Assembly: GCA_001786575.1 (NCBI GenBank)
Contig: MFRW01000005.1
Span: forward strand, 23,581 to 87,580
DNA length: 64,000 bases
From: Candidatus Moranbacteria bacterium RIFCSPHIGHO2_01_FULL_55_24
GTDB lineage: Bacteria; Patescibacteriota; Minisyncoccia; Moranbacterales; UBA1568
Reading direction: 5' to 3'
Positions 3,617-29,434 of this stretch are shown in pieces. The notes under the pieces are model-generated. The model was not told the DNA's origin. It saw only the letters and a program-made list of their open reading frames with translations, and made no database searches. Made by a program: the position numbers and the translations under genes. Position 1 is the stretch's first letter; the number at the start of each line of letters is the position of its first letter.

Positions 3617-4597
3617 TCAAGCTGACTTCTTCCGCTTGGCGTGGAAGGAGCGGTGGACTTCTTTGAGCCGCTCATTGGTGATGTGGGTGTAGACCTGGGT
3701 CGTGGTGATCGAGGCGTGCCCGAGCATCGCCTGGACGCTTCGGATATCGGCGCCATTTATGAGGAGATCGGTGGCGAAACTGTGGCGGAGCGTATGTGGG
3801 TGCACATCCTTCACGATGCCTGCTTTCTTGGCATAGTGCTTCACGAGGCGCTGGACGGTGCGGGGGGTGAGACGTTCCGTATCACGCTCTTTCGCCTTCT
3901 TTGTCTGCAAGCCCTTCTTCGGATAGCCGACGAAGAGCGCCGGGTCGATATCGGTCCGCTTATCGAGATAGGCTTTGAGGGCGAGCCTGGCATCGGGTGA
4001 GAGGAAGACGATACGCAGCTTGCTTCCTTTTCCGCGCACGCTGAATTCCTCCTTGTCGAGATTCACATGGTTCCGGTCGAGACCGATAAGTTCCGATACG
4101 CGGAGCCCGGAAGAGAACAGGAGCTCGACAATAGCGCGATCGCGCAGGCTTTTCGCGTCGATTCCTTGGGTCGCGGCGATGAGGCGCTCTACCTCATCGA
4201 ATTCCAGGAAGTCTACCTGGCGGTCCGGGATCTTGCCGACCTCGACCTTCTCGGCGGCGAGGGTGCTTATGTCCTGTTTGGCCAGGTATTTGAGAAATGT
4301 CCGGATGACGATCGCGTGGTAGGCCTGGGTATTCTTCTTGAGGGTCTCCCCGCGCCCGTTTTCCTTGCGATTCAGGTAGAGGCGGTATTCGCGGACTCGC
4401 CCGAAGGTGATATCTGCCGGGATTACGAGCTCTCCCCACTGGAAAAAATGTGAGAGCACCCTCCCGTAGCTCTCGAGCGTCCGGCGGGAGCGGTTCATCT
4501 CGATTTCCAGGTGGTCCAGGAACTCTTGGGCGAGCCTTTCGAGCTCGGTCCGGGGCTTCTTTTGTTTTTCTTTTTCCATGGTAGTATTATGCGACAT
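3617..4597 (-). CDS. tyrosine site-specific recombinase, XerC/XerD/phage-integrase family
   Basis: C-terminal catalytic motifs HTLRHSFATDLLINGADIRSVQAMLGHASITTTQVYTHI (R..H..R..Y). Core-binding N-terminal domain. ATG at 4597, with an alternative at 4579. Confidence 0.85.
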   Translation of the reverse strand: MSHNTTMEKEKQKKPRTELERLAQEFLDHLEIEMNRSRRTLESYGRVLSHFFQWGELVIPADITFGRVREYRLYLNRKENGRGETLKKNTQAYHAIVIRTFLKYLAKQDISTLAAEKVEVGKIPDRQVDFLEFDEVERLIAATQGIDAKSLRDRAIVELLFSSGLRVSELIGLDRNHVNLDKEEFSVRGKGSKLRIVFLSPDARLALKAYLDKRTDIDPALFVGYPKKGLQTKKAKERDTERLTPRTVQRLVKHYAKKAGIVKDVHPHTLRHSFATDLLINGADIRSVQAMLGHASITTTQVYTHITNERLKEVHRSFHAKRKKSA

Positions 4598-4706: not shown

Positions 4707-4985
4707 TACCTTTGTAAAAATTAGGGTAAAAGCCTGATGGGTAGGAAATAAGCTTTTTTCGAAAAGCTCCTATTCTAAAGCTTTTTCCAATTGAAAGGCG
4801 CGATTCATATCCGCAATTTTCACCCGTTTTCCCATCGTGAGAGCGAGCAGGAAAACGATCTTCAGCACGGTACCAAAGGAAAGGAAAAAGTAGCCCTTGG
4901 GGACCGCTTGCATGGTTGGCATACCAAGTCGCACTACCTGCAGAGACGTCTGCTGACCTTCTTGAAGGATGTTTCGGGGTATCGG

Positions 4986-6071
4986 GTGGTCCGGGTCTTC
5001 CGGAATTACTCGGCTTTTTCTATCGTGGCGTCGAGCGCCCTTCTGGTCTCGGCAAGCAATTTCGCCCAGGGCCAGGATTCTTCCAGCGTTCTTTTGAGCT
5101 ACATCGGCGAAGATACCGCGACTGAAGACACGCTTTCTGCCAAGCATCGGATCGCCGCCCAGAGCGGCAAGAAAGAGAATCTGGCGCTGGTGCCCCTCGC
5201 TGACGCGTCTACGTCTGTCGATCCGGAACAGAAAGACAACACTTCTCTCTTCGATGTCGAAGCGCTGGCTTTCCAGAATCAAGTGATGCTCTCGACCCAG
5301 ACGGTCGATATGGCCAAGGATCCCGAAGAAGAGGGTGGTGTCACGATCTATACCGTCAAATCCGGGGACAATCTCGGCTCGATCGCAGAGAAGCATGGCA
5401 TTACGGTCAATACCATCCTCTGGGCGAACGACTTGGCGAATGCCGACGAGATCAAGCCTGGGGACCAGATCTTCATCCTGCCGGTAGCCGGCCTTTCCCA
5501 TGTGGTGAAGAGCGGCGAAACCATCGACTCTATCGCCAAGGAATACAAGGCCGATGCCGAGAAGATCATCGCTTTCAACAGCCTGCCGGCCAATGGCGAG
5601 CTCAAGATCGGCGACTCGATCATCATTCCGGATGGCAAAAAGGATGCTCCGAAGCCGGCTCCGAGCGATGAAACTGGGCTCGAACGCCGCCAGTATGCGA
5701 CTTCGACCGGCGGAACCGCTACGGATGTTTCCGGCTATCGGAAGCTCGAAGGCAAGGCGGGGGCCGGGCACCGCTTCCCTTACGGCTATTGCACCTGGTA
5801 CGTGGCGCAGAAACGCTATGTGCCATGGGGCGGCAATGCCGGAACCTGGCTCTACAATGCCAAGGCCATGGGCTACAGGACCGGCAAGGCTCCGGCTGTC
5901 GGCTCGATTGTCGTAACGACCGAGAACCGCTACTATGGCCACGTCGCTATAGTAGAGAAGGTGAGCGGCGGGATGATTACCGTGAGCGATATGAACTACG
6001 TGGGCTGGGGCAAAACCAGTCGCCGCACGCTCCCGGCAAATAGCCGCGTCATCAAGGGGTATATCTACTAG
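4986..6071 (+). CDS. peptidoglycan hydrolase: signal peptide, 2x LysM, C-terminal CHAP domain (candidate T4SS cell-wall hydrolase, PrgK/TcpG-like role)
   Basis: Two LysM repeats (YTVKSGDNLGSIAEKHGITVNTILWANDL...GDQIFIL and HVVKSGETIDSIAKEYKADAEKIIAFNSL...GDSIIIP). CHAP signature (YGYCTWYVAQKR...GNAGTWLYNAKAMGY...YGHVAIVEKV, Cys and His present). There is no in-frame ATG. GTG at 4986 gives a signal peptide (VRVFRNYSAFSIVASSALLVSASNFAQG). The first possible start is TTG at 4791. Confidence 0.7.
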   Translation: MVRVFRNYSAFSIVASSALLVSASNFAQGQDSSSVLLSYIGEDTATEDTLSAKHRIAAQSGKKENLALVPLADASTSVDPEQKDNTSLFDVEALAFQNQVMLSTQTVDMAKDPEEEGGVTIYTVKSGDNLGSIAEKHGITVNTILWANDLANADEIKPGDQIFILPVAGLSHVVKSGETIDSIAKEYKADAEKIIAFNSLPANGELKIGDSIIIPDGKKDAPKPAPSDETGLERRQYATSTGGTATDVSGYRKLEGKAGAGHRFPYGYCTWYVAQKRYVPWGGNAGTWLYNAKAMGYRTGKAPAVGSIVVTTENRYYGHVAIVEKVSGGMITVSDMNYVGWGKTSRRTLPANSRVIKGYIY

Positions 6072-6620: not shown

Positions 6621-6687
6621 TTTGCTTAACTATGGTATACTTGGTGTTGAGGTGCTCCATATCGGAAGGCGCTTTTCCTGGTTTGCT

Positions 6688-8895
6688 ATGACCATTTTCG
6701 AAAATAAAAAGAAAAGGAACGGAGTTCTCGCGCTAACGCTTGCTTTGATATTCTTTGCAGGCGTTTTTGTATTTTTTGGAGCAGGAATAGTACATGCTGA
6801 ATCAGGATCGGTGGGGTATAACTCTGCTGTGCAACTTGGAGAGGCGGCAGCGAGCAATAGCGGAGGGGGCATGTTTGGATGGATAAGAGATGGCGTGATC
6901 TATGCTTTTAAAACCGTTCTTTACTGGGTTTTTCAATTGATGGGATGGGGGGTGTCCGTGGCGGTCACAATCTTCGGTTGGGCGATCAATCCGGAATACG
7001 TCTCCGGCCCGAACGGTTTCTTCAATCTGCCGGCAGTATATGACATGTGGAAATTCGTGCGAGATTTCCTGAACCTCTTCTTTATTCTCGCGCTCCTTTT
7101 CGCGGCCTTCGCAACGATTTTCCAGATAGACAAGTACAGCTACAAGAAGATCCTCTTGAAACTCGTTATCGCAGCGCTCATGGTGAACTTCAGTTTCCCT
7201 ATCTCCCGAGCGCTCATCGATGTGACGAATGTCCCGATGTATTTTTTCGCGAATTCTTTGATAGCGGATACCAATAATCCGAGCGCAGCTTTTGGGTCAG
7301 CGTTAAGCGCTTCGAAATTAGAGAATATTTTAGTTCCGCCAGCAGCCCAAGATGATCTGGACAAGATTGATACGTCACGATTGCTCGCAGCAATCGTGTT
7401 CATGTTTCTGTTCGCAGTCACGCTTCTGGTGCTGGCTGTGCAGTTTATCATCCGTCTCATCGCGCTTATCATTCTCGTTATTCTTTCGCCGATCGGGTTC
7501 GTGATGCCGGCTGTTCCGGGACTCCAGAAGTATGGAGGGCAATGGTGGGATAATTTCCTGAAGTATGCATTCTTCGGCCCGGCGGCGATGTTCATGCTGG
7601 TGCTTGCGACTCACTTCTTTGATGCTATCGGCGGAGCGAATAGCGGCACGTATAAGAACTTTCAGGCGGCAAGCCAGACTTCTGCTGCTGTCAACAGTGA
7701 CTTCATCGCTTCCATGGCGATGTTCTCCATCCCGATCGTGATGCTCTGGTTCACTATCGGTATTTCCGGGAAATTCGCTATTGCTGGCGCATCGGCCTCT
7801 ACCGCTTGGGGATACAAGGCAGGCAATTGGGGCAAGCGAAAATTATATGACAACCGCATAGGCCGGGGATTGTACCGTGGCGGAAAGAAGGCTGTTAGCG
7901 AAGGGAAGATCGCCGGCTTTGACTACGGGAACAAGAGGCTGGGCAAATATCTGTCGGGCAACTATTGGAAGCAGCCGAGCAAGATTGAAGCTGGTATTGC
8001 CGGCGGTGTCTACGGAGGCAAGGCCGGTGCTCGCCAGGAAATCGATAACGAAAGACATAAAGCCGTACTTAAAAGGGCGAAAGAGATTAAGGAAAGCAAT
8101 GAGAGCAATGAAACGAATAGGATCGGTCTCAAATCTTCGAGTCTGGTCGAAAGACAGGCTCGCGCCCGGGCTTTGGCCGAGGCTGGAGCCATCAAGACTC
8201 CGGAACTTCTCCTCCAGGCTCTCGAAGCCAATAAGGATAATCAGGGAATTGTCGATAAGGAACTGCATGAGTTCGTGCAAGACAAGGCTCATTCCGATGC
8301 CTGGGACGGCGTATCCGACAGGTACAAGAAAGATCCGGAATTCAAGCAGAAATACGATGCAATGGTTGAGAATCCTTCTATGTATCTGCGGGATGAAAAA
8401 ACCGGAAAATATGTCGATCATAATGGCAAAGAAGTTGATGCGGAGAAGAGAGTCGCTAGCAGCGCGCTGGAAGGATTCTATAGCAAGATCAAGAAAGAAG
8501 GCGAACTTCAGGTACGCGTGGATTATGATGCCCAGCAGTTTATGAAGGCAGGCAAGTCCGAGAGTGAAGCCAAGAGCCTGGCGTATGAGAAGCACATCGC
8601 GAAATTGAGCGCTGATGACTTGGCAAAGCAGGGAAGCATACTGTCTGTCCTGAAGAAGATGGATGATAAGGGTGAGCCCAATAAGAATTATGATCCGGAG
8701 CTTGTCGACTACTTCAAAGGTAAAACCAAGGATGACCCGCAGTACTACCAGGAGGCTCTGAAGAAGATGAAGAAGGGGAGCCGTGAAATTTGGCGGCAAG
8801 CGATCGATGGAGTTCAAAAAGAACAAAAGGAGGGACTAAAAGAAGGGTCGCGCGAATGGGCAGAGGCTGAATGGAAAAAGAAGCAAGGGGCTTAA
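6688..8895 (+). CDS. VirB6/TrbL-like polytopic membrane protein with long charged C-terminal coiled-coil extension (PrgH/TcpH-like)
   Basis: ATG at 6688 with signal/anchor MTIFENKKKRNGVLALTLALIFFAGVFVFFGAG. At least 6 predicted TM helices (FLNLFFILALLFAAFATIF, LLKLVIAALMVNFSF, LLAAIVFMFLFAVTLLVLAVQFIIRLIALIILVILSPIGFVMPA, YAFFGPAAMFMLVLATHFF, MAMFSIPIVMLWFTIGISG). About 350 aa of K/E-rich hydrophilic tail. Extended -10 TGGTATACT lies just upstream (6633-6641). Confidence 0.6.
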   Translation: MTIFENKKKRNGVLALTLALIFFAGVFVFFGAGIVHAESGSVGYNSAVQLGEAAASNSGGGMFGWIRDGVIYAFKTVLYWVFQLMGWGVSVAVTIFGWAINPEYVSGPNGFFNLPAVYDMWKFVRDFLNLFFILALLFAAFATIFQIDKYSYKKILLKLVIAALMVNFSFPISRALIDVTNVPMYFFANSLIADTNNPSAAFGSALSASKLENILVPPAAQDDLDKIDTSRLLAAIVFMFLFAVTLLVLAVQFIIRLIALIILVILSPIGFVMPAVPGLQKYGGQWWDNFLKYAFFGPAAMFMLVLATHFFDAIGGANSGTYKNFQAASQTSAAVNSDFIASMAMFSIPIVMLWFTIGISGKFAIAGASASTAWGYKAGNWGKRKLYDNRIGRGLYRGGKKAVSEGKIAGFDYGNKRLGKYLSGNYWKQPSKIEAGIAGGVYGGKAGARQEIDNERHKAVLKRAKEIKESNESNETNRIGLKSSSLVERQARARALAEAGAIKTPELLLQALEANKDNQGIVDKELHEFVQDKAHSDAWDGVSDRYKKDPEFKQKYDAMVENPSMYLRDEKTGKYVDHNGKEVDAEKRVASSALEGFYSKIKKEGELQVRVDYDAQQFMKAGKSESEAKSLAYEKHIAKLSADDLAKQGSILSVLKKMDDKGEPNKNYDPELVDYFKGKTKDDPQYYQEALKKMKKGSREIWRQAIDGVQKEQKEGLKEGSREWAEAEWKKKQGA

Positions 8896-8913: not shown

Positions 8914-10104
8914 ATGGGAGGAAACAAAATAACAAAACGGATTTACTATCCCCTTCTCTCTTCAGAATCTCTGTCGGGAGGGGTTCAGGCTACGGAAGAG
9001 ATGTTGTCCGTATGGGATGCGTTCGATAAGATTGCTCCTGAAAAGCAGGATGTTTTGACGAGCGAAGAAATGCCTCAAAGAATCTCTGATTTTCAGGGCC
9101 AGCTGGGCGTGAGCGACCAGGAAATAGAGAAGTTGAGCATTCTGATCCGCAAGTATTTTTTCGGGACGTTGGATGGAGCGCAGTTTTCCGGAGAAGTTCG
9201 GACTCTTTTCGGCCAAAAAACAGAAGCGGAAAAAGAGAATGCTATAAAATATATCCAAAAAGAAATTTTGGAACTGAAACCGAAACCGAAAATTGTCGAG
9301 AAGGAAAACTTGCAAGAAACCCCGCAGAATAATTCCGTAGTGATATACCCACTTCTCCAAGCGCTTTCCAAATATGAAGGGCTTGGCAACCAGATGGTGA
9401 CGAACGAGCGCATTCACATCAAATCCCAGCCGGAGCCGGTCCGCCCGTCGCTTTTCAATTGGCTCAAATGCTACCGCGATGAGCTCGGTATCGGCCAGCA
9501 CAACAGCGTGCAGCGCGGGCAGTTCCTCTTCCGTTCCGAGAACGGCCGCCGCTTGAATCCCGAGGAGCGCGAGCGTATCAATCTGATACTGAAGTCTGTC
9601 GAAGAGAATTTCCCGCTCCAGATCGATGCACGCCGGCAGGAAATCATCTTCCCGAAGTTCGAGTTCGAGTCGGTCTCGGAGCGCCCGGCCCAGGAATCGA
9701 GAGACGCCTCTCCTCGGATAGAGCTCGCTTTCGGCGGGGCGACCTTCGCCAAAGGCCCGAGTTTCGATGCGCATGGAGAGAATGCAGAGAAAGCACCGGC
9801 ACCGCTTCCTCCTCGGGAAACAAAGAGCTCTGTACCGAACGGCAACCGGTTCACCGTTACGCGCGAGGCTCCGATGGGGAAGCTCCTCGGAGTGAAAGCT
9901 TTCCAAGAGACGGAGGAATCCCCAGCCGGAACCATGAGTTTCTCGTCGAGCCATACGCTCCCGGCAGAACAGGAAGAAAAAGTGCAAGCGACGGGTCAGA
10001 ATCAGGGAGCGAAATTGAAGCCACGGGAGATCAACCCCTTCCATATCCGCCCAGTCAGCCTAGGAGAGGAAAAGAAAAGCCGTAAAGAAACCTCACGCCT
10101 ATGA
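8914..10104 (+). CDS. hypothetical protein in T4SS-like operon
   Basis: ATG at 8914. Protein-like K/E-rich composition, unlike the R/L-rich antisense ORF 8962-10044. Its stop TGA overlaps the next start (ATGA at 10101). Confidence 0.5.
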   Translation: MGGNKITKRIYYPLLSSESLSGGVQATEEMLSVWDAFDKIAPEKQDVLTSEEMPQRISDFQGQLGVSDQEIEKLSILIRKYFFGTLDGAQFSGEVRTLFGQKTEAEKENAIKYIQKEILELKPKPKIVEKENLQETPQNNSVVIYPLLQALSKYEGLGNQMVTNERIHIKSQPEPVRPSLFNWLKCYRDELGIGQHNSVQRGQFLFRSENGRRLNPEERERINLILKSVEENFPLQIDARRQEIIFPKFEFESVSERPAQESRDASPRIELAFGGATFAKGPSFDAHGENAEKAPAPLPPRETKSSVPNGNRFTVTREAPMGKLLGVKAFQETEESPAGTMSFSSSHTLPAEQEEKVQATGQNQGAKLKPREINPFHIRPVSLGEEKKSRKETSRL

Positions 10105-10511
10105 TGTTCAATGTTCCGCAATTCATCGATGTCGAAGACAAGATCGCCGGTCCGCTTACCTGGCGCCAGATCCTCTGGATGATCGGGATGGGCGCGACGC
10201 TCCTCACGTTCTACAACCTTTTCGATAGCACGCTCTTCTTCATCATCTCTGTTCCGACGGTGCTTCTCTTCGCGGCTTTCGCATTCTATCGGCCCAATGG
10301 CATGTCGATGACCGCATTCTTCCTTCACGCGGTATTTTTCTTCTTCCGGCCGAAGGTTTCCGTGTGGGAGAGACCCGCGACTGTCCGGCGGATGCCGCAA
10401 GCGCCGAAGACATCGGAAAACGGGACCCAAGCGCCGCCAGCCGCGAAAGATTTGAGCGAAGATCGGCTGCACGAGTTGGCAAAAATCCTCGATCGGCATG
10501 GAAGAGTATGA
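10101..10511 (+). CDS. PrgI/VirB3-like small membrane protein (two TM helices) immediately upstream of VirB4
   Basis: Two TM helices (ILWMIGMGATLLTFYNLF; FFIISVPTVLLFAAFAFY). Size and position match VirB3/PrgI analogs. Translationally coupled to the upstream gene. Confidence 0.5.
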   Translation: MMFNVPQFIDVEDKIAGPLTWRQILWMIGMGATLLTFYNLFDSTLFFIISVPTVLLFAAFAFYRPNGMSMTAFFLHAVFFFFRPKVSVWERPATVRRMPQAPKTSENGTQAPPAAKDLSEDRLHELAKILDRHGRV

Positions 10512-10543: not shown

Positions 10544-11224
10544 ATGGAATTCCTCAAACCAAAACAAAAAGCTGGCGCATCCAGCACGCAGCGCTACGTT
10601 GACGTCGAAGAAATCCGCGACGGCATCATCGTGCTCAAAAGCGGAGCGCTCCGTTCGGTGCTTCTCGTCTCTTCGCTCAATTTCGATCTCAAGTCGAGCG
10701 AGGAGCAGGATGCGATTATCAGCCAGTACCAAGCTTTTCTGAATTCGCTCGACTTCCCGATCCAGATCGTTGCGAGCTCGCGACGCTTCAATGTGGAGCC
10801 GTATCTGGAGCTCTTGAACGACAAAGAGGCCGTCCAGGAAAACGAGCTTTTGCGTTTCCAAATCGCGGAATACAAGAATTTCATCAAGAATCTGACGGAT
10901 GTCTCGAACATCATGTCCAAGTATTTCTATGTCGTCGTGCCGTTCTCGCCGTCGGAAGATGAGAGGAGCAGCTTCCTCGGGAAGCTGACAGGAATCTTCA
11001 ATCCGCAGAAAACCGTGAATCTCCACGGAGAGCTTTTCGAGACCTATCGGAGCCAGCTCTTCCAGCGTGTCGAACAGGTGACAGCAGCGCTTTCGGGTAC
11101 CGGAGTGCGGGCGACAGCACTCACGACCGAAGAGATCATCGAACTCCTTTATAACAGCTACAATCCATCGCTCTTCGCCACATCGATCATCAAGAACGTC
11201 GATGCGCTGGAACTGATAAAATAA
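10544..11224 (+). CDS. VirB4/TrbE/CagE family N-terminal domain (split from the ATPase domain by an in-frame TAA)
   Basis: RYVDVEEIRDGIIVLKSGALRSVLLVSSLNFDLKSSEEQDAIISQYQAFLNSLDFPIQIV matches the VirB4 N-terminal region. Same reading frame as 11231-13078, with a single TAA at 11222-11224. Confidence 0.6.
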   Translation: MEFLKPKQKAGASSTQRYVDVEEIRDGIIVLKSGALRSVLLVSSLNFDLKSSEEQDAIISQYQAFLNSLDFPIQIVASSRRFNVEPYLELLNDKEAVQENELLRFQIAEYKNFIKNLTDVSNIMSKYFYVVVPFSPSEDERSSFLGKLTGIFNPQKTVNLHGELFETYRSQLFQRVEQVTAALSGTGVRATALTTEEIIELLYNSYNPSLFATSIIKNVDALELIK

Positions 11225-11230
11225 ACACCC

Positions 11231-13078
11231 ATGGAGCCAGGAATCGTATTCACCGCCAAGGAAGAAGAGAAGCCCCCAAGCGACAAGAAGGGCTTGTTCC
11301 ATGCGGAAAAAGCGAGCGAGAGCGATCTCCTCTACCAGAAAGGCTTGGCGACGATCCGGGATCTCATCGCGCCGCCGGCGATCAAGATCACGCCGAACAC
11401 CATGCAGATCGGCGAAGTGGTGTCGCGCACCTTTTTCGTCATCGCGTACCCGCGCTACTTGAGCACCAACTGGTTTTCGCCGATCATCAACATCGACTTC
11501 CCGATGGACATCTCTCTCTTCATCCATCCGATCGATACGGCCGAGATCTTAAAGAACCTGCGCAAATCCGCGACCCAGGTGCAGTCGCAGATCCACATCG
11601 AGGCGGAGGGGGGCAAGATCCGCAACCCGGTCCTCGAAACCGCTCTCGAAGATATCGAAGGACTGCGGGACAAGCTCCAGCAGGGAACGGAAAAATTCTT
11701 CCGGTTCGGCCTCTACATCACGCTCTATGGAGCCGATGAGAAAGACTTAAACGAGAAGAGCCAGGCGATCGAGGCGCTTCTCGAAGCCCAGCTCGTCTAT
11801 ACCAAGCCGGCCGTCCTGCGGATGGACCAGGGATTCGCGGCGACGCGCCCGCTCGCCAACGATGTCTTGGATGTGGCAAACAACCTGAACACCGAGCCGC
11901 TTTCCACGACCTTTCCGTTCGTCTCCTCGGACCTTTCCTCGAACCAGGGCATCCTCTACGGCATCAACCGGCACAACAACAGCCTGGTCTTGTATGACCG
12001 TTTCAATCTGGAGAATGCCAACATGGTCGTGTTCGCCAAGTCCGGTGCCGGTAAGAGCTATATGGTGAAGCTCGAAGTGCTGCGTTCGATGATGTTCGGG
12101 ACGAGCGTTATCATCATCGACCCGGAAAACGAATACAAGCATCTCTGCGAGGCGGTCGGCGGCACGTTCCTCAAGATCTCGCTCAATTCCGAAGCGCGTC
12201 TGAACCCGTTCGATCTTCCGAAGCGCGTGGACGATGAGGACGGCGAGAGCGTGTTTCGGAGCAGCGTGGCGAATCTCATCGGCCTGCTCCACCTCATGCT
12301 CGGGACGGTCACACCGGAAGAAGACTCGATCCTCGACCGCGCCATCCGCGAGACCTATGCGCTCCGCGATATCACCGAGCACAGCGACTACCAGGGCCTG
12401 ACGCCCGAGGCGTTTCCTACGATGTCGGACCTGTACCAGGTACTCCAGAATATGGACGGTGCAGAATCGCTTGCCATGCGGCTCGAGCGCTATACCGAAG
12501 GAATCTTCGGCGGGTTCCTCAACCAACAGACCAATGTGTCTACCGAGAATCAGCTGATCGTTTTCAACATCCGCGACTTGGAGGACGAGCTCCGGCCGAT
12601 CGCCATGTACATCGTGCTTCAGTTCATCTGGAATGAGATCCGCTCGCAGATGAAGAAGCGCCTCGTCGTGGTGGATGAGGCCTGGGTCATGATGCAGAAC
12701 GAAGATGCGGCTTCGTTCCTCTTCGGAATCGCGAAGCGCTGCCGCAAATACTATGCGGGCCTGACCACGATTACCCAGGATATCAGCGACTTCATGGCAT
12801 CCCGCTACGGCAAGCCGATCATCACGAACTCATCGCTCCAGCTCCTCCTGCGCCAGTCGCCGGCGACTATCGATGCGGTGTCCGAGACCTTCTATCTGAC
12901 CGATCACGAGAAATTCCTGCTCCTGGAGAGCAACGTCGGAGAGGGGATATTCTTCGCCGGGACCAAGCATGCCGCGATCAAGGTGATCGCTTCCTATAGC
13001 GAAGACCAGATCATCACTTCCGACCCGCGCCAGCTCTTGGAAATCGAGGAAGCGAAGCGGGATTTCGGGTCTTCATGA
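11231..13078 (+). CDS. VirB4/TraC-type T4SS ATPase (middle and C-terminal ATPase domains)
   Basis: Walker A VVFAKSGAGKSYMVK. Walker B LVVVDEAWVMM. VirB4 middle-domain region IKITPNTMQIGEVVSRTFFVIAYPRYLSTNWFSPIINIDFPMDISLFIHP. Combined with the upstream fragment the length is about 843 aa, typical for VirB4. Confidence 0.85.
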   Translation: MEPGIVFTAKEEEKPPSDKKGLFHAEKASESDLLYQKGLATIRDLIAPPAIKITPNTMQIGEVVSRTFFVIAYPRYLSTNWFSPIINIDFPMDISLFIHPIDTAEILKNLRKSATQVQSQIHIEAEGGKIRNPVLETALEDIEGLRDKLQQGTEKFFRFGLYITLYGADEKDLNEKSQAIEALLEAQLVYTKPAVLRMDQGFAATRPLANDVLDVANNLNTEPLSTTFPFVSSDLSSNQGILYGINRHNNSLVLYDRFNLENANMVVFAKSGAGKSYMVKLEVLRSMMFGTSVIIIDPENEYKHLCEAVGGTFLKISLNSEARLNPFDLPKRVDDEDGESVFRSSVANLIGLLHLMLGTVTPEEDSILDRAIRETYALRDITEHSDYQGLTPEAFPTMSDLYQVLQNMDGAESLAMRLERYTEGIFGGFLNQQTNVSTENQLIVFNIRDLEDELRPIAMYIVLQFIWNEIRSQMKKRLVVVDEAWVMMQNEDAASFLFGIAKRCRKYYAGLTTITQDISDFMASRYGKPIITNSSLQLLLRQSPATIDAVSETFYLTDHEKFLLLESNVGEGIFFAGTKHAAIKVIASYSEDQIITSDPRQLLEIEEAKRDFGSS

Positions 13079-13091
13079 TTAAGAAAATGTT

Positions 13092-13613
13092 ATGGCTTTC
13101 GTGTCTGATTACGCTTCCGGGGAATCCCAAGATGAGGCACTTGCCCAAGAGCTCGAGTACCATACGCGCCTGACGGCGGAACTCCGCGCCCGGGCAGCGG
13201 CGCAGTCTTCTTACGAGACGGTTTCCTCCCAGATCGAACGGGTGAAAAAGAGCAAAGCGAGCCTTTTCGCGTACGCCCCGGCACTCCTCTTAGCCGCTCT
13301 GAAGGACACGCTCGATCTCGTCGCTATAGGCTCTATCCCGGTTATCGGGACGATAATCACGATCTGTGTCTCCTTTCTTATCTTCCTGTCTCTGCTTATC
13401 ACGCGAGCCAACAAAGATCTGATCGATTCGAGATTCGTTCTCCGCATGGGTATCGCCGTCATCGCCGGCTTCATCGTGGAGGGATTCTTCTTCGGGATAA
13501 ATTTCCTGCCGATCGAAGTATTCACGGTACTCGCTGTCCTCTGGATGGATAGACACTTGTCCGATGAGCAGATCCAGGCTTTTTCTGAAAAGGCGAAAAG
13601 CATGAAAAGGTAG
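13092..13613 (+). CDS. hypothetical membrane protein (3-4 TM) in T4SS-like operon
   Basis: ATG at 13092. Hydrophobic segments LLLAALKDTLDLVAIGSIPVIGTIITICVSFLIFLSLLI and MGIAVIAGFIVEGFFFGINFLPIEVFTVLAVLW. Confidence 0.5.
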   Translation: MAFVSDYASGESQDEALAQELEYHTRLTAELRARAAAQSSYETVSSQIERVKKSKASLFAYAPALLLAALKDTLDLVAIGSIPVIGTIITICVSFLIFLSLLITRANKDLIDSRFVLRMGIAVIAGFIVEGFFFGINFLPIEVFTVLAVLWMDRHLSDEQIQAFSEKAKSMKR

Positions 13614-13662: not shown

Positions 13663-14319
13663 ATGAGAACATTCTCGCTCGCAGAAAAAAAGTTTATCGG
13701 GACCAGCGCCCTGATTCTTTTCTGTCTCCTTTTCTTCGCTTTTTTCGAGGAGAGTTCGCAGTTGAGCGGGGTGCTCCAGGGTTTCATTATCGGTATCGTT
13801 TTCTTCTTGGTCATTCCGCTCGCGTACTGCAGGATGGTCTTGCGGGAGCCGCTTTCCAATATGGGGTGGCAAAGAGGAGAAGGTATCTTCGGGTTCTTTT
13901 GGCCGCTTCTCTCTGTCGCGATCGCCTTTGCGGGCATTTTCTTCCTTACGTGGCAGTTCCCGGCATTCGCAGAGGCGTATACGTTCCCGGTCGCGGTGGA
14001 GACGAACTTCCTCTGGTTCGTGCTTTATGAGCTCTTCATGGTCCCGTTCATCGTCCTCATCTACGAGTCATTCTTCCGCGGATTGGTGCAGATGCTCTGG
14101 CTCCAAGCGCTCGGCGCATGGGCGATTCTGGTACAGGCGGCGCTTTTCACAGGCCTGGTCTATGTGAGCGACGGCTTCACCTGGGAGACGCTCCCGCTTC
14201 TCGTCTTTGCGCCTTTTGCGGGGTATATCGCCTATAAGACGCACTCGCTCTGGTATGCATTTCTCGGAAGCTGGACATTTCTCTTTCTGACTGACGTACT
14301 CTTTTTGATTCTCCGTTAG
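13663..14319 (+). CDS. CPBP/Abi-like polytopic membrane protein (degenerate CAAX-protease motifs)
   Basis: 6-7 TM helices. IYESFFRGLVQ resembles CPBP motif 1 (EExxxR). Later motifs are not canonical. Preceded by extended -10 TGGTATACT (13644-13652). Confidence 0.4.
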   Translation: MRTFSLAEKKFIGTSALILFCLLFFAFFEESSQLSGVLQGFIIGIVFFLVIPLAYCRMVLREPLSNMGWQRGEGIFGFFWPLLSVAIAFAGIFFLTWQFPAFAEAYTFPVAVETNFLWFVLYELFMVPFIVLIYESFFRGLVQMLWLQALGAWAILVQAALFTGLVYVSDGFTWETLPLLVFAPFAGYIAYKTHSLWYAFLGSWTFLFLTDVLFLILR

Positions 14320-14336: not shown

Positions 14337-17129
14337 ATGTTTACATTCGGAAAACGAAAAAAGACCCTTCTCGCTATCCTCATGGTCGGCCAGATGTTCA
14401 TAGGGAGCGCCCTGCCGGCTGCAGCGCTCTTCGGCGGGATCAAGATCCCGTCGGCATCCAAGGTGGTCTCGGACATCGAGAAGCGCTATCATATCGATCT
14501 TGAGAATGTCCAAGATCAGGGAGAGTTGTTCAATGTCCTTTCGAATAAACAGCCTGCTCCGGAGGTCTCTTTATTTTTCTCGCCGTCCGACCCTCGCCTC
14601 GGGGAGAAGATTTCTGCCAAGGCTTTTCCGGTTTATTTTATCAACAATGAAGAATCTCTCTATTACACATGGTACCTGAAGCGCGCTGATTGCGGACTGA
14701 CGAACTCCCCAAGCGCTGCGGTCAGGAGCGCTTGCGATCGGAATAATGATAACCGCATCACCGTAGAAGACTGGAAGATCGAGGCGGTGCGTATCATCGC
14801 CCAGAACGGCTATGACAATACCGCTACCAGCTACTCCTCGGACTCCGATGATGACGGCTATCGTGCGCGTTTCGGCGGCGATAACAGGGCGAATACGCCG
14901 GATTATTGCTACATCCACGACAATTCTTCGGGGAAGAATTACGAGCTGACAGACAGTTCTTCCGACACGAGTTTCTCCTGTCCGGCCGGGACAACTGCAG
15001 TGTGCGTGATCGAGGATGAAGGAGTCGAGCCGGGAGAGATCCCAGAGGGCACATTGGGAACCAGCAGCGCAAGCGATACGTTCGTTGTCGGCAATACCGA
15101 TGAGTGCAGCGTTTCGGGGCTTCCGGCCTGTACAACGAGCGGAACGCCTTCTTGCGGAACAGGAACGCCGCGCTGCGTCGCGAATCCGGAAAGCAATACT
15201 ACTTCCTGCGGTACGGCTTTGAGCACCTGCAGCACGACTTCTTCCGGTAATGCAGATCCTTCCTGCAAGCACCTTTTCCCGAAGGCTTCCGGCGCGACGA
15301 CTGGCGACGGGTCATTCAATGCGAGTGAAGAACGCTTCTGGGGAACCGACCCGAATGATCCGGACACAGCCGACAACGGCAACAAGGACGAAGCGAATGT
15401 CACCGGTCTCGGCCGTTCTACCTTCACCTGGAACTATGCGACAGGCGACCAGGTGGGCGTAGCGGTAGAAGGCACCTCGATGATCGCTACCAAGCATGAC
15501 AATTCTTCGGTGATGATCATGTGGGCCTTCGCCAAGAAGGACTGCCCAGTAGAGGATACCGGATCATATACCCAGTCCATCAAGAATTACAGCGTCGAGA
15601 TAGAGACGGCCGACATGGATCTCAATAATTGTCTGGAACGCAACCTCGTCGACCCGGCCCAAGGCGGCCAGGCGACGAATCTGGAAGTGGAAGTTTCGGC
15701 AACCCCGAATGAGCCGGTGAACGATGAGACCGGGGACGAGTCGGGCGATCTCGTCATCGCCCAGGCGAGCGTGAGCAATGGAGTCCAGGATTTGTCGAGC
15801 ATACTCTTCGATTGGAAGGTAGATATCAGCAATAATATCCAATTCAGTTCCTCGATCGGGCCAACCGCCGATGTCACTGCGGATCTTCGCAGTCTCTCGC
15901 TTTTGAGCAACGCGAAGGGGAATGCTCTGGACGCTGTCCGGCTGAAGCTTGATATTCCGCGGAGCGCGAGCTTGGGCGGCCGGCCGCTTTCGAGCTATCT
16001 TTCCGGAGATGTGGGGTATCTCCGCTTCACTTCCCGGGTGAGCGAGAATTTCTCGCAGGGAATCGCTCGCCAGGGGAGGAGCGATGTGATCGTGAAGTTC
16101 ACTTCCACCCAGAGGAAGATCGTCGCCTATAAGGCAGAACCGGCTCTCGTAGCAGGAAAGATGCAAGTGAGACTCCCTGCCAATGCCGGAGCCATCTGCA
16201 ATGATGATGCCTTGGATCGCAATGTCTGCCGTGTCGTCGAGAACGAAATCGTCGGCTTGAGCGTCGATGAGAATGATCTCACGAATTTCAATTGGACAAT
16301 CAATGGATCGCCGCTCCGCTGTTCCGCAAGCGCCGTATCGCCGGACTGCACCGACGGCCAGCAGAATGCGGTGAATTTCTTCCCGGTCACGGGGAACGTG
16401 GGCGATACCTACACGGTCACGCTCACGGCAAACGACGTGACGAATGGCAAGACCGTCACGCTCTCGCGCTCATTCAATATCGTCTCGCCGCAAGTACGGA
16501 TCGTTTCCGGCGATGAGAACGCCGCGTGGCCGAAATTCCTCGGCCAGTACAGGGATGTGACGGGGACAGCGACGGATTGCCCCGGAGGCCTCTGCGATGA
16601 TGTGAGCAAGAATGTCTTCGAAGCATTCTCCGGCGACAGCCTCACGCTCCAGGCGAAGTTTATCCCGAGCTTCCTCGCGAGTTCCGCCGAAAGGCAGTGG
16701 ACCATCGATAACGAAAACGTATCCGAGACCAGCCCGAACGAACTTGTCTTCCCGGCCGATAAAGCGCCCTTCATGGTCTACAATATCGGGCTCGCGGCCC
16801 GCGTGATGCAGTCCAACGATACCCGGAGGGCTCTCCTGGATATCTGGAATATTTCCCCGCTCGATTCGCCAGAAGTGCATTTCTCTTCAGGGATACAGAT
16901 CGAGCTCCAGGATCCGACTCTTGTCCGCGGCGATGAAACCCCGGTTCAGAAGTATCTGGCCGCTCTGGTATCGTATGTCCCGGCATCGCTTCTTTTCTCC
17001 TTCCGTATCCTTCTAAGCGGAGCGCTCATCCTCTTCGCCACCGGATTCGTGATGGCCATCCTGCCAGGCGGAAGAGCGGCCGAGGCGATTGCTCCAAGTC
17101 CGGGCAGATCCGGCAGAAACGATTGGTAA
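14337..17129 (+). CDS. large secreted Cys-rich/Ser-Thr-rich surface protein with C-terminal membrane anchor (candidate adhesin)
   Basis: Signal peptide MFTFGKRKKTLLAILMVGQMFIGSALPAAALFGG. Cys-rich block (CSVSGLPACTTSGTPSCGTGTPRCVANPESNTTSCGTALSTCSTTSSGNADPSC). Hydrophobic C-terminus (LLFSFRILLSGALILFATGFVMAIL). Confidence 0.6.
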   Translation: MFTFGKRKKTLLAILMVGQMFIGSALPAAALFGGIKIPSASKVVSDIEKRYHIDLENVQDQGELFNVLSNKQPAPEVSLFFSPSDPRLGEKISAKAFPVYFINNEESLYYTWYLKRADCGLTNSPSAAVRSACDRNNDNRITVEDWKIEAVRIIAQNGYDNTATSYSSDSDDDGYRARFGGDNRANTPDYCYIHDNSSGKNYELTDSSSDTSFSCPAGTTAVCVIEDEGVEPGEIPEGTLGTSSASDTFVVGNTDECSVSGLPACTTSGTPSCGTGTPRCVANPESNTTSCGTALSTCSTTSSGNADPSCKHLFPKASGATTGDGSFNASEERFWGTDPNDPDTADNGNKDEANVTGLGRSTFTWNYATGDQVGVAVEGTSMIATKHDNSSVMIMWAFAKKDCPVEDTGSYTQSIKNYSVEIETADMDLNNCLERNLVDPAQGGQATNLEVEVSATPNEPVNDETGDESGDLVIAQASVSNGVQDLSSILFDWKVDISNNIQFSSSIGPTADVTADLRSLSLLSNAKGNALDAVRLKLDIPRSASLGGRPLSSYLSGDVGYLRFTSRVSENFSQGIARQGRSDVIVKFTSTQRKIVAYKAEPALVAGKMQVRLPANAGAICNDDALDRNVCRVVENEIVGLSVDENDLTNFNWTINGSPLRCSASAVSPDCTDGQQNAVNFFPVTGNVGDTYTVTLTANDVTNGKTVTLSRSFNIVSPQVRIVSGDENAAWPKFLGQYRDVTGTATDCPGGLCDDVSKNVFEAFSGDSLTLQAKFIPSFLASSAERQWTIDNENVSETSPNELVFPADKAPFMVYNIGLAARVMQSNDTRRALLDIWNISPLDSPEVHFSSGIQIELQDPTLVRGDETPVQKYLAALVSYVPASLLFSFRILLSGALILFATGFVMAILPGGRAAEAIAPSPGRSGRNDW

Positions 17130-26204: not shown

Positions 26205-27290
26205 ATGTATCAGAAAACTGCAAGAATCTTCTTTCTCGGGATGTTCTTGTTTTCTTTTTTCTCGCCGCTGCCGGCGGACGGCGCGGGTTTGGTGCCCTGC
26301 GGCCAGAATGTGAACGATCCTGCCACCGATATCGATGAGTCGGCAAAATGCACCATGTGCCATCTCGTGGTGGCCGGAAACGGGATCATCAACTGGCTCA
26401 TGGGGATCATGACGATCCTCGCGATCGCGATCGTCTTCGCTATGGCGATCTATTACATCATCTCGGCCGGGAACCAGGGGATGATGGAGACCGCCAAAAG
26501 CGGCATCAAGGCGGCACTCATCGGGTTTGCGGTCATGCTTTCGGCCTGGCTTATCGTCAATACCACGCTCCGGATCTTCGGCGCTACTATTCCGGGACTT
26601 ACTAGCTCTAGCGGAGGCTTCACCTTCACTTGCGATATCTCGTCTTCTGCCGGCACATCCAGCGCAGGCGCCGGAGCAGGTGCCGGAGCAGGCGTCGGAG
26701 CAGGTGCGCCAGCCGGAGGCGGTGCGGCCTGCGAGAACATCGATGCTGCCAAGGCGCGGCTTTCGGCAGGCGGTACGGTCTGCAACGGGACCGGTTCCTG
26801 CCCGTCTTGCAATACCCAGCCGTTCGATTCCTTGATCGAGAGGTATGCCAAGCAGTACAAAGTCTCTCCTGGACTGATCCGCGGAGTGATCGCTCGGGAA
26901 TCAAGCTGTGATCGGATTAAGGAGAAGAAGGAGAGCGACGGCAGTTCAAGCTGCGGGCTGATGCAGGTGAATACGCGTTCTTCTACATACTCCTGCGCCC
27001 AATTGAAAGATTCAGCCACGGGGATCATGGAGGGGACGCGTATCCTGGCAGCGGCTTACTCTACAGCACAAAGCCTGAAAGCCAAGTATGGCAATAGGGT
27101 GACCGTGAACGAACTCGCAGCAGCGATTCATAACGCGGGAGCGGGAGAGAGCGCGGCGAGCGTCGACTGTTCGTCGGCGAGCGGTTGGCCCACTATCCCG
27201 AAATGGGGATGCCCTATCAATCCAGGGAACGCTCAATTCAATGCGTGCGCCATCAGGGATTACGCTTGCAATGTCGGAGCGTGTAAATAG
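26205..27290 (+). CDS. fusion protein: signal peptide + VirB2/TrbC-like pilin domain + Gly/Ala linker + VirB1-like SLT lytic transglycosylase
   Basis: N-terminal part has two TM helices around YIISAGNQG, the motif shared with the downstream pilins. GAGAGAGAGVGAGA linker. SLT motifs: ARESSCD (catalytic E-S), GLMQVN, IHNAGAGE (AYNAG-like). Confidence 0.65.
   Translation: MYQKTARIFFLGMFLFSFFSPLPADGAGLVPCGQNVNDPATDIDESAKCTMCHLVVAGNGIINWLMGIMTILAIAIVFAMAIYYIISAGNQGMMETAKSGIKAALIGFAVMLSAWLIVNTTLRIFGATIPGLTSSSGGFTFTCDISSSAGTSSAGAGAGAGAGVGAGAPAGGGAACENIDAAKARLSAGGTVCNGTGSCPSCNTQPFDSLIERYAKQYKVSPGLIRGVIARESSCDRIKEKKESDGSSSCGLMQVNTRSSTYSCAQLKDSATGIMEGTRILAAAYSTAQSLKAKYGNRVTVNELAAAIHNAGAGESAASVDCSSASGWPTIPKWGCPINPGNAQFNACAIRDYACNVGACK
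26663..26710 (+). repeat. in-frame tandem 12-nt repeat (GGAGCAGGNGNC x3-4) encoding the GAGAGAGVGAGA linker
   Basis: gcaggcgcc ggagcaggtgcc ggagcaggcgtc ggagcaggtgcg. Confidence 0.5.
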
Positions 27291-28528: not shown

Positions 28529-29434
28529 ATGCAAAACACAAAAAAATTCTCACGGAACCTCCTAGCGGCAATATTGTTTTTCTTGGTGAGCGCAGGATTC
28601 GCCGGCATAGCGGAGGCCCAGCAGCCAGGCACAACAGCCACTTGTCGAGCAGTAAGCGGGACCTGTATTCCTGGTAGTCCCCATCCGCAATATTCTAGTT
28701 GCGGTCATGATTGGGGGCGGCTGGATTGTGCGGAGAGTTACAAGTGCTGCACGCTGAAAACCAGTACGACATCTGCCAACACTAACGCTAACGCCAATAC
28801 CACAGGAGGCACTACTTCTCCGACAGGTGGCGGAGGAGGCGCTCCCAAAGCAGGCAACGGCGGCGGAGCAACTGCACCGAATGCTCTCGGCGGCGGAAAT
28901 GCCACATCGACATCGATAAACATTACGAATCCCCTCAAGTTCGAAACAGTCGAGGAAGTGGTGACGAGCCTTCTGGGGACGCTCCAGGGCATCGTCGTGA
29001 TTCTCGCCTTGGTATTCATCGTCATCGGTGCGCTTCTCTATATCACTTCGGCTGGGGATGAGGGCCGGATAAAGACCGCCAAAGCGGCTATCACGGCGGC
29101 GCTTATCGGTCTGGCTATCGCGCTGGCCGCGCCATCGTTCTTGAAGGAAATAGGAGGAATCCTGGGCTGGGGCGCAGTCGATAGCAGCGCCGCGGCGGGA
29201 GCGCAGACGCTCTCGGAGATCGCGATGAATGTCTTGAATTTCCTCCTCTCGATTGTCGGCGTACTGGCGATCATCATGCTCATCGTAGGCGGCATCATGT
29301 ACCTCACCGCTGCCGGAGACGAGGACCGGGTCGATACCGGCAAGAACATCGTGAAGTATGCGATCATCGGTATTATCGTGGCTTTCGCCTCTCTCGTGAT
29401 TGTCAGCCAATTGGCAAAATTCTTCGCACCGTAA
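28529..29434 (+). CDS. secreted protein with Cys-rich N-domain, Gly/Thr/Asn-rich linker and two tandem VirB2/TrbC-like pilin domains
   Basis: Signal peptide. ATCRAVSGTCIPGSPHPQYSSCGHDWGRLDCAESYKCC. Two motif copies: LLYITSAGDEGRIKTAKAAITAALIGLAIALAA and IMYLTAAGDEDRVDTGKNIVKYAIIGIIVAFASLVIVSQLAKFF. Confidence 0.6.
   Translation: MQNTKKFSRNLLAAILFFLVSAGFAGIAEAQQPGTTATCRAVSGTCIPGSPHPQYSSCGHDWGRLDCAESYKCCTLKTSTTSANTNANANTTGGTTSPTGGGGGAPKAGNGGGATAPNALGGGNATSTSINITNPLKFETVEEVVTSLLGTLQGIVVILALVFIVIGALLYITSAGDEGRIKTAKAAITAALIGLAIALAAPSFLKEIGGILGWGAVDSSAAAGAQTLSEIAMNVLNFLLSIVGVLAIIMLIVGGIMYLTAAGDEDRVDTGKNIVKYAIIGIIVAFASLVIVSQLAKFFAP

Follow-up and report, generated by a model that had tools for sequence, protein, structure and literature searches.

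TrsD homologues are the most abundant component of the type IV secretion systems (T4SSs) of Patescibacteria, and they usually adjoin virB4 (Quinonero-Coronel et al. 2025, PMC12102498). That survey counted 2,272 of them in 2,221 assemblies, 1,664 associated with virB4; it stated that TrsD and VirB4 are homologous and listed one TrsD homologue as essential in Candidatus Southlakia epibionticum ML1 (Ca. S. epibionticum). TrsD is not mentioned in the main text of Guglielmini et al. 2014 (PMC4027160). An arrangement in which two genes supply VirB4 is already known in Patescibacteria and in plasmids of the pGO1/pSK41 type. Here we describe such a pair of open reading frames (ORFs), ORF1 and ORF2, in Candidatus Moranbacteria bacterium RIFCSPHIGHO2_01_FULL_55_24 (assembly GCA_001786575.1, contig MFRW01000005.1, positions 23,581–87,580 of the forward strand; this stretch of 64,000 nucleotides (nt) is the window, and all positions below refer to it). 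We conclude that ORF1 and ORF2 are almost certainly two genuine genes, presumably co-transcribed, that jointly supply a fused-type VirB4, and that the split is natural and conserved.

In the Staphylococcus aureus plasmid pSK41, the genes run in the order trsC (135 amino acids), trsD (227 amino acids, annotated as TrsD/TraD family) and trsE (672 amino acids, a DUF87 ATPase). The gene order of the Moranbacteria locus is identical to that around TrsD and TrsE of pSK41/pGO1 (and TraD and TraE of pIP501), which represent the pGO1 subclass of MPF-FATA systems, and the product sizes, plasmid first, are 135 and 136, 227 and 226, and 672 and 615 amino acids. The features of the locus that carry the argument are as follows.

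10101–10511, + strand: PrgI-family, VirB3-like small membrane protein of 136 amino acids (Pfam PrgI PF12666), directly upstream of ORF1
10544–11224, + strand: ORF1, TrsD-like stand-alone protein of 226 amino acids, from ATG at 10544 to TAA at 11222–11224
11222–11224, + strand: TAA stop codon of ORF1, a conserved gene end (stop after query residue ~224–226 in 80 of 80 related loci)
11225–11230, + strand: intergenic spacer ACACCC, 6 nt, without a Shine-Dalgarno motif
11231–13078, + strand: ORF2, VirB4-type ATPase core of 615 amino acids, from ATG at 11231 to TGA at 13076–13078
11927–13078, + strand: C-terminal ATPase domain of ORF2, residues ~233–615 (placed by a phmmer match to 4AG5 in the PDB)
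12035–12058, + strand: Walker A, AKSGAGKS, ORF2 residues 269–276 (regular-expression match on the translation)
12662–12679, + strand: Walker B, LVVVDE, ORF2 residues 478–483 (regular-expression match on the translation)

A preliminary description of this DNA had given these coordinates for the two ORFs, a common frame, and a lone TAA followed by ACA CCC ATG, all of which proved exact when we checked sequence and translation. The starts of ORF1 and ORF2 are congruent modulo 3, and the translation of 10544–13078 contains one internal stop. We regard the common frame as having no significance in itself, because chance alone places a third of adjacent genes in a shared frame and only 18 of the 79 orthologous loci described below have it. 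The window, at 55% G+C, reads with the standard genetic code. Its 41 long ORFs end in TAA, TAG and TGA 18, 14 and 9 times, respectively; TAA and TGA had already been described as true stops here, and all three stop codons in fact end ordinary genes. Shine-Dalgarno usage is weak, with motifs of that kind before only 11 of the 41 long ORFs. The 6-nt spacer before ORF2 was inspected for a Shine-Dalgarno motif, which would have pointed to independent initiation; there is none, but the absence is uninformative because so few of the long ORFs are preceded by such a motif.

The split recurs throughout the relatives of this locus. Searching 5.8 billion proteins with ORF1 returned 2184 homologues, the best 120 of which, mostly from Candidatus Moranbacteria and 70–95% identical, are all 189–251 amino acids long; among proteins that match ORF1 over its full length, the best is 80% identical. 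A species-level scan using one genome per species gave 80 loci at 58–76% identity (L001–L080), one of them cut by a contig end, which left 79 informative loci with both genes. The closest of these loci come from Moranbacteria metagenome-assembled genomes (MAGs), and the closest relatives of both ORF1 and ORF2 are Patescibacteria proteins. In each of the 79 informative Moranbacteria loci, the ORF1 homologue stops after query residue ~224–226 and is followed by an ORF2 homologue. The preliminary description had suggested looking across the junction in related genomes for a conserved sense codon; a stop stands there instead in all 80 loci. It had also named orthologues with two separate ORFs as the sign of a natural split, and such orthologues are what the comparison found.

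Around this constant stop, the details of the junction vary. The ORF2 homologue lies in another frame in 61 of 79 loci, and the ORF1 homologues end in TAA (46 loci), TGA (19) or TAG (14). The spacing between the genes has a median of 10 nt and reaches 492 nt, while some pairs overlap (four at −4, of the ATGA type, and, by computation, one at −16). The two gene ends themselves are conserved: orthologues of ORF2 start with M-x-P-G-I and those of ORF1 end with EL-x-stop. ORF1 is evidently under purifying selection, since 62 of its columns are invariant across 54 orthologues, and such selection acts on both ORF1 and ORF2.

Across Moranbacteria species, ORF2 homologues range in length from 597 to 900 amino acids (for example L020, L033, L047 and L050). 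They carry an insertion of variable size, as long as ~280 amino acids, directly after the junction, where it separates the conserved start from the core, which is conserved as well. Many Moranbacteria-like loci with 70–76% identity to ORF1 (for example L002, L003, L005, L006 and L014) come from MAGs titled ‘uncultured Bdellovibrionales bacterium’, which is probably a taxonomic mislabel.

Profile and sequence comparisons place ORF1 at the beginning of VirB4. It matched positions 101–280 of the 894-position NCBIfam model VirB4_plasma, which describes the VirB4 of Mycoplasma integrative and conjugative elements (E 3.6e-10), positions 3–119 of 752 in the NCBIfam CD1110 VirB4 model, and positions 6–142 of 201 in the NCBIfam TrsD/TraD model NF041427 (E 2.6e-8, 33.9 bits). 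An exhaustive phmmer search with ORF1 over 1.84 billion cluster representatives (50% identity) produced 2316 hits. Among the best 150 (36–58% identity), 148 are 104–443 amino acids long and two are fused, full-length VirB4 proteins, P0240 (898 amino acids) and P0244 (797 amino acids); ORF1 is homologous to the N-terminal portion of P0240, with 40% identity to residues 13–223 (E 3e-48). A structure model of ORF1 superposes on TrwK, the VirB4 of R388 (7O41/7O42), over 150 residues. Searching the PDB with the ORF1 sequence gave no match (best E 1.2, unrelated), and a local Pfam-A scan of ORF1 (10544–11221) assigned no family. Precomputed annotation gives PF26593.2 for every listed ORF1 homologue; the discrepancy probably arises because our local library is older than the PF26593.2 model. 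In size and position ORF1 resembles the TrsD/TraD family, being a protein of ~200–230 amino acids encoded between the VirB3-like and VirB4 ATPase genes. ORF1 is a soluble protein that, as the alignments place it, matches the first ~220 residues of a fused VirB4, and since its homology to TrsD/TraD is remote only, the name that suits it best is TrsD-like.

ORF2 supplies the remainder. It scored 363.3 bits against NCBIfam conju_CD1110 (cutoff 325; profile positions 180–730 of 752) and covered positions 281–893 of 894 in VirB4_plasma, a profile on which ORF1 and ORF2 therefore abut exactly (101–280 and 281–893), collinear and without overlap. Pfam matches within ORF2 are P-loop_TraG, AAA_10 and TraC_F_IV. 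In phmmer searches of the PDB, ORF2 residues 233–596 aligned to 4AG5, the C-terminal domain of Thermoanaerobacter VirB4 (chain residues 3–388, E 1e-54), and residues 263–563 to TrwK in 7O41 (residues 445–735, E 2e-9); the R388 protein and 4AG5 are thus like ORF2 in having a homologous ATPase domain. Walker A and B motifs, homology to solved domains and a score above the curated cutoff all mark ORF2 as a VirB4/TraC-type ATPase. A VirB3-like gene is also at hand, the PrgI-family gene at 10101–10511 (PF12666, E 2.5e-12, 47.6 bits, cutoff 27), with only ORF1 in between. What ORF2 does not have is the complete VirB4 N-terminal region in one polypeptide; ORF1 contributes the rest.

The position of the break within VirB4 differs somewhat from what had been assumed. 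The preliminary description put it between an N-terminal domain upstream and an ATPase domain downstream. It was right that an N-terminal part lies upstream and the Walker motifs downstream, but its border was imprecise: because 4AG5 aligns only from ORF2 residue 233, ORF2 retains ~230 residues of what is classically the N-terminal region of VirB4, and the split therefore falls inside that region rather than at the border of the ATPase domain. By this comparison, ORF2 consists of the C-terminal ATPase domain preceded by the distal portion of the N-terminal region. Weak BLAST side-hits hinted at an internal duplication in which ORF1 would be a paralogue of the N-terminal 230 residues of ORF2. 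We rejected it on an hhalign probability of 0.6%, although the two family alignments compared were of low diversity (Neff about 2), which makes this a weak test.

The fused relatives show how the two parts belong together. ORF2 aligned to residues 306–890 of P0240 (52% identity) and to residues 226–793 of P0244 (53% identity), and the split falls in a linker, residues 224–305 of P0240, that is variable in the fused form. P0244 comes from Candidatus Colwellbacteria, another lineage of Patescibacteria, where it was found in three MAGs; split and fused VirB4 thus coexist within Patescibacteria. Compared with fused MPF-FATA VirB4 proteins (the CD1110 family, the Mycoplasma element VirB4 and P0244), ORF1 and ORF2 cover the whole profile collinearly and differ in being two polypeptides instead of one. 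By the usual logic of gene fusions, fused relatives with collinear parts suggest that the products of ORF1 and ORF2 act as one unit.

Similar pairs are found on plasmids. ORF2 residues 44–585 aligned to TrsE residues 36–617, which indicates that the ATPase gene begins at the same point of VirB4 in pSK41 and here, and our PrgI-like gene occupies the position of trsC in pSK41 and of the PrgI gene in the Bacillus thuringiensis Bt407 plasmid BTB_502p. With ORF1 as query, tblastn against plasmids matched 83 records, which belong to Bacillota, Actinomycetota and haloarchaea. Side by side and annotated as two genes, homologues of both ORFs are present on a Pontibacillus plasmid (274 and 621 amino acids, 11-nt overlap), on BTB_502p after PrgI (328 and 661 amino acids) and on a Haloarcula pelagica plasmid (556 and 761 amino acids, 4-nt overlap). 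As judged from these alignments, the junction lies at the same point in the pSK41, Pontibacillus, B. thuringiensis and Haloarcula plasmids, and the comparison shows a gene fission that is old and stable, or else an ancestral state in which the parts were not yet fused, common to Patescibacteria, some Bacillota plasmids and haloarchaeal plasmids. The pSK41/pGO1 systems are nonetheless unlike ours in two respects: the sequences are very divergent, with 25% identity for both ORF1/TrsD and ORF2/TrsE, and they are plasmid conjugation systems, whereas the Moranbacteria locus is chromosomal, lies amid housekeeping genes and is accompanied by VirB2-like pilins. TraD of the pELF plasmid is not relevant here, as it is a VirD4 homologue.

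Outside Patescibacteria, some stand-alone homologues of ORF1 are extended at the C terminus, namely those of H. pelagica (L083, 3986–5656, 556 amino acids) and Bt407 (L084, 3911–4897, 328 amino acids), and some of the top phmmer representatives are 300–443 amino acids long, compared with 226 for ORF1. These longer proteins suggest that the detached module gains other sequence in some lineages.

For the internal stop, the preliminary description had considered a real two-polypeptide VirB4, a recent pseudogenising nonsense mutation, a sequencing or assembly error, and programmed readthrough. Two separate ORFs in 79 of 79 informative loci strongly support the first. A recent nonsense mutation in a formerly single VirB4 gene would explain why ORF1 and ORF2 share a frame with one stop and 6 nt between them, and fused VirB4 does exist in some relatives (P0240 and P0244). 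The nearest fused forms are only ~40% identical to ORF1, however, while at 58–76% identity the stop is at the same position in 80 of 80 loci, 79 of them with an ORF2 homologue; a mutation recent to this genome does not account for a stop shared by all 79 informative species. Frames differ in 61 of 79 of these loci, spacers vary, ORF2 has its own conserved MxPGI start, and ORF1, with its 62 invariant columns, shows none of the relaxed conservation that a pseudogene demands. The idea that an error in sequencing or assembly created a false stop at 11222–11224 has nothing in its favour beyond the in-frame arrangement. Against it stand the assemblies of 79 other species, produced independently in many laboratories and with many assemblers, which have a stop at the homologous position, and the thousands of independently predicted stand-alone homologues of ~225 amino acids. 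Together, the conserved split, lengths and junctions and the selection on ORF1 exclude both accounts: we give the nonsense mutation practically no chance of being correct, and consider an erroneous stop just as improbable.

Programmed readthrough or recoding, which would yield a fused VirB4 besides or instead of the two polypeptides, draws on the common frame, the short 6-nt spacer and the lack of a Shine-Dalgarno motif before ORF2. Such a mechanism is hard to reconcile with orthologues in which neither the frame relation, nor the identity of the stop codon, nor the spacer is conserved. Only 18 of 79 loci are in the same frame, fewer than the third expected by chance; the sequence context downstream of the stop varies as well, and some orthologues overlap (ATGA) while others lie more than 100 nt apart. 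All three stop codons end ordinary genes of the window, and the scarcity of Shine-Dalgarno motifs there deprives their absence before ORF2 of meaning. With frame, stop identity and context all unconserved, no support is left for programmed readthrough, and we consider it very unlikely.

Two co-transcribed genes that jointly supply VirB4 are thus the explanation we retain, and a mechanism can be proposed for them. The genes lie in a chromosomal T4SS locus of the Patescibacteria type, where they follow the order VirB3-like (PrgI), TrsD-like and VirB4 core. ORF2 would be translated by coupling or by re-initiation after the ORF1 stop; because the spacer is 6 nt long and without a Shine-Dalgarno motif, translational coupling is probable. 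The products of ORF1 and ORF2 would then assemble non-covalently into a VirB4-like protomer. In R388, the N-terminal domains of VirB4 join the protomers within each dimer and, at the membrane, touch VirB3 and VirB8 (reviewed in PMC12857230). By analogy, the N-proximal module would here come in trans from the TrsD-like ORF1 protein, which may form a bridge between the ATPase core and the PrgI-like protein and thereby dock the ATPase to the VirB3-like protein at the membrane.

Several points weigh against this reading. That ORF1, ORF2 and the VirB3-like protein physically assemble is our inference, drawn from relatives with a fused VirB4 and from how the R388 system is built, and TrsD is without an assigned function in the published literature. 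ORF1 also lies far under the curated cutoff of the TrsD/TraD model NF041427 (33.9 versus 200 bits), and its pairwise similarity to pSK41 TrsD is weak, at 25% over 65 amino acids. Finally, ORF1 and ORF2 happen to share a frame in this particular Moranbacteria genome, which leaves room for rare readthrough.

Two extensions of the two-gene explanation were also weighed. The split might be functionally exploited rather than merely neutral, with a separate TrsD-like subunit present in a stoichiometry other than that of the ATPase core; the TrsD-like module could, for example, sit on only one ring of a VirB4 hexamer of dimers, or act as a checkpoint during assembly by docking the ATPase onto VirB3. 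If so, the machines of Patescibacteria and of the pGO1 type would be architecturally unlike those with fused VirB4. The evidence at hand does not support this idea, and we think it unlikely. Occasional readthrough into a fused isoform, by way of the in-frame TAA and the 6-nt spacer of this genome, is less likely still and would surprise us.

The rest of the window contains further candidate T4SS genes, listed here with their neighbours.

3617–4597, − strand: tyrosine recombinase (Phage_integrase and SAM-like N-terminal domain), just upstream of the string of LysM-CHAP and T4SS genes
4791–6071, + strand: LysM-CHAP cell-wall hydrolase, candidate VirB1-like protein (Pfam LysM E 2.7e-24, CHAP E 5e-18)
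6622–8895, + strand: large protein of 757 amino acids, possible VirB6-like membrane component, encoded upstream of ORF1 in the same gene string (assigned mostly by position, with a weak NCBIfam match)
13092–13613, + strand: ORF of 173 amino acids without a family match, directly downstream of ORF2
13663–14319, + strand: CAAX/Rce1-like membrane protease (E 6e-6), downstream of ORF2
14337–17129, + strand: ORF of 930 amino acids without a family match, downstream of ORF2
26205–27290, + strand: protein of 361 amino acids with a VirB2-like T4SS pilin segment (T4SS_pilin, residues 59–119, E 1.2e-7) and an SLT lytic transglycosylase domain (residues 210–316, E 6.5e-6)
28529–29434, + strand: VirB2-like T4SS pilin protein of 301 amino acids with two pilin stretches (Pfam T4SS_pilin E 5.9e-22, TrbC E 4.4e-8)

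The recombinase could be XerC/D or a remnant of an integrative element. The sole match of the 6622–8895 product is to the NCBIfam CD3337/EF1877 mobilome membrane protein (E 0.0034, 16 bits, cutoff 120). The three ORFs downstream of ORF2 (13092–13613, 13663–14319 and 14337–17129) may be uncharacterised T4SS components. The product of 26205–27290, encoded ~13 kb from the virB4 cluster, resembles a fusion of pilin and VirB1 type; together with the product of 28529–29434 it makes up a small group of pilins at a distance from virB4. Housekeeping genes in the window encode a UvrD-type helicase, IF-2, NusA, BipA, trigger factor and RNase Y; together with the LysM-CHAP hydrolase and the VirB2-like pilins, these neighbours fit the chromosomal T4SSs of PMC12102498. 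The components that occur together in T4SSs of the Patescibacteria clade (VirB4, TrsD, PrgI/VirB3, VirB6 and VirB2-like pilins) are all represented here, VirB6 with weak support. The repertoire is the one described in PMC12102498, with VirB4, a TrsD homologue beside virB4, PrgI/VirB3 and VirB2-like pilins; nothing substantive differs, and the Moranbacteria locus is one more species-level instance.

What we add to that survey is a comparison at the level of the junction, which PMC12102498 does not contain, and the exact location of the split inside the N-terminal region of VirB4. This is relevant to annotation, where neighbouring ORFs that share a frame and jointly rebuild a known protein can readily be mistaken for a pseudogene or a recoding site. 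The mapping defines the TrsD-like protein as the N-proximal part of VirB4, ~220 residues long, in detached form. This is a modest refinement rather than a discovery, and it yields a testable hypothesis for the TrsD-like protein, namely a role in docking the ATPase to VirB3 at the membrane.

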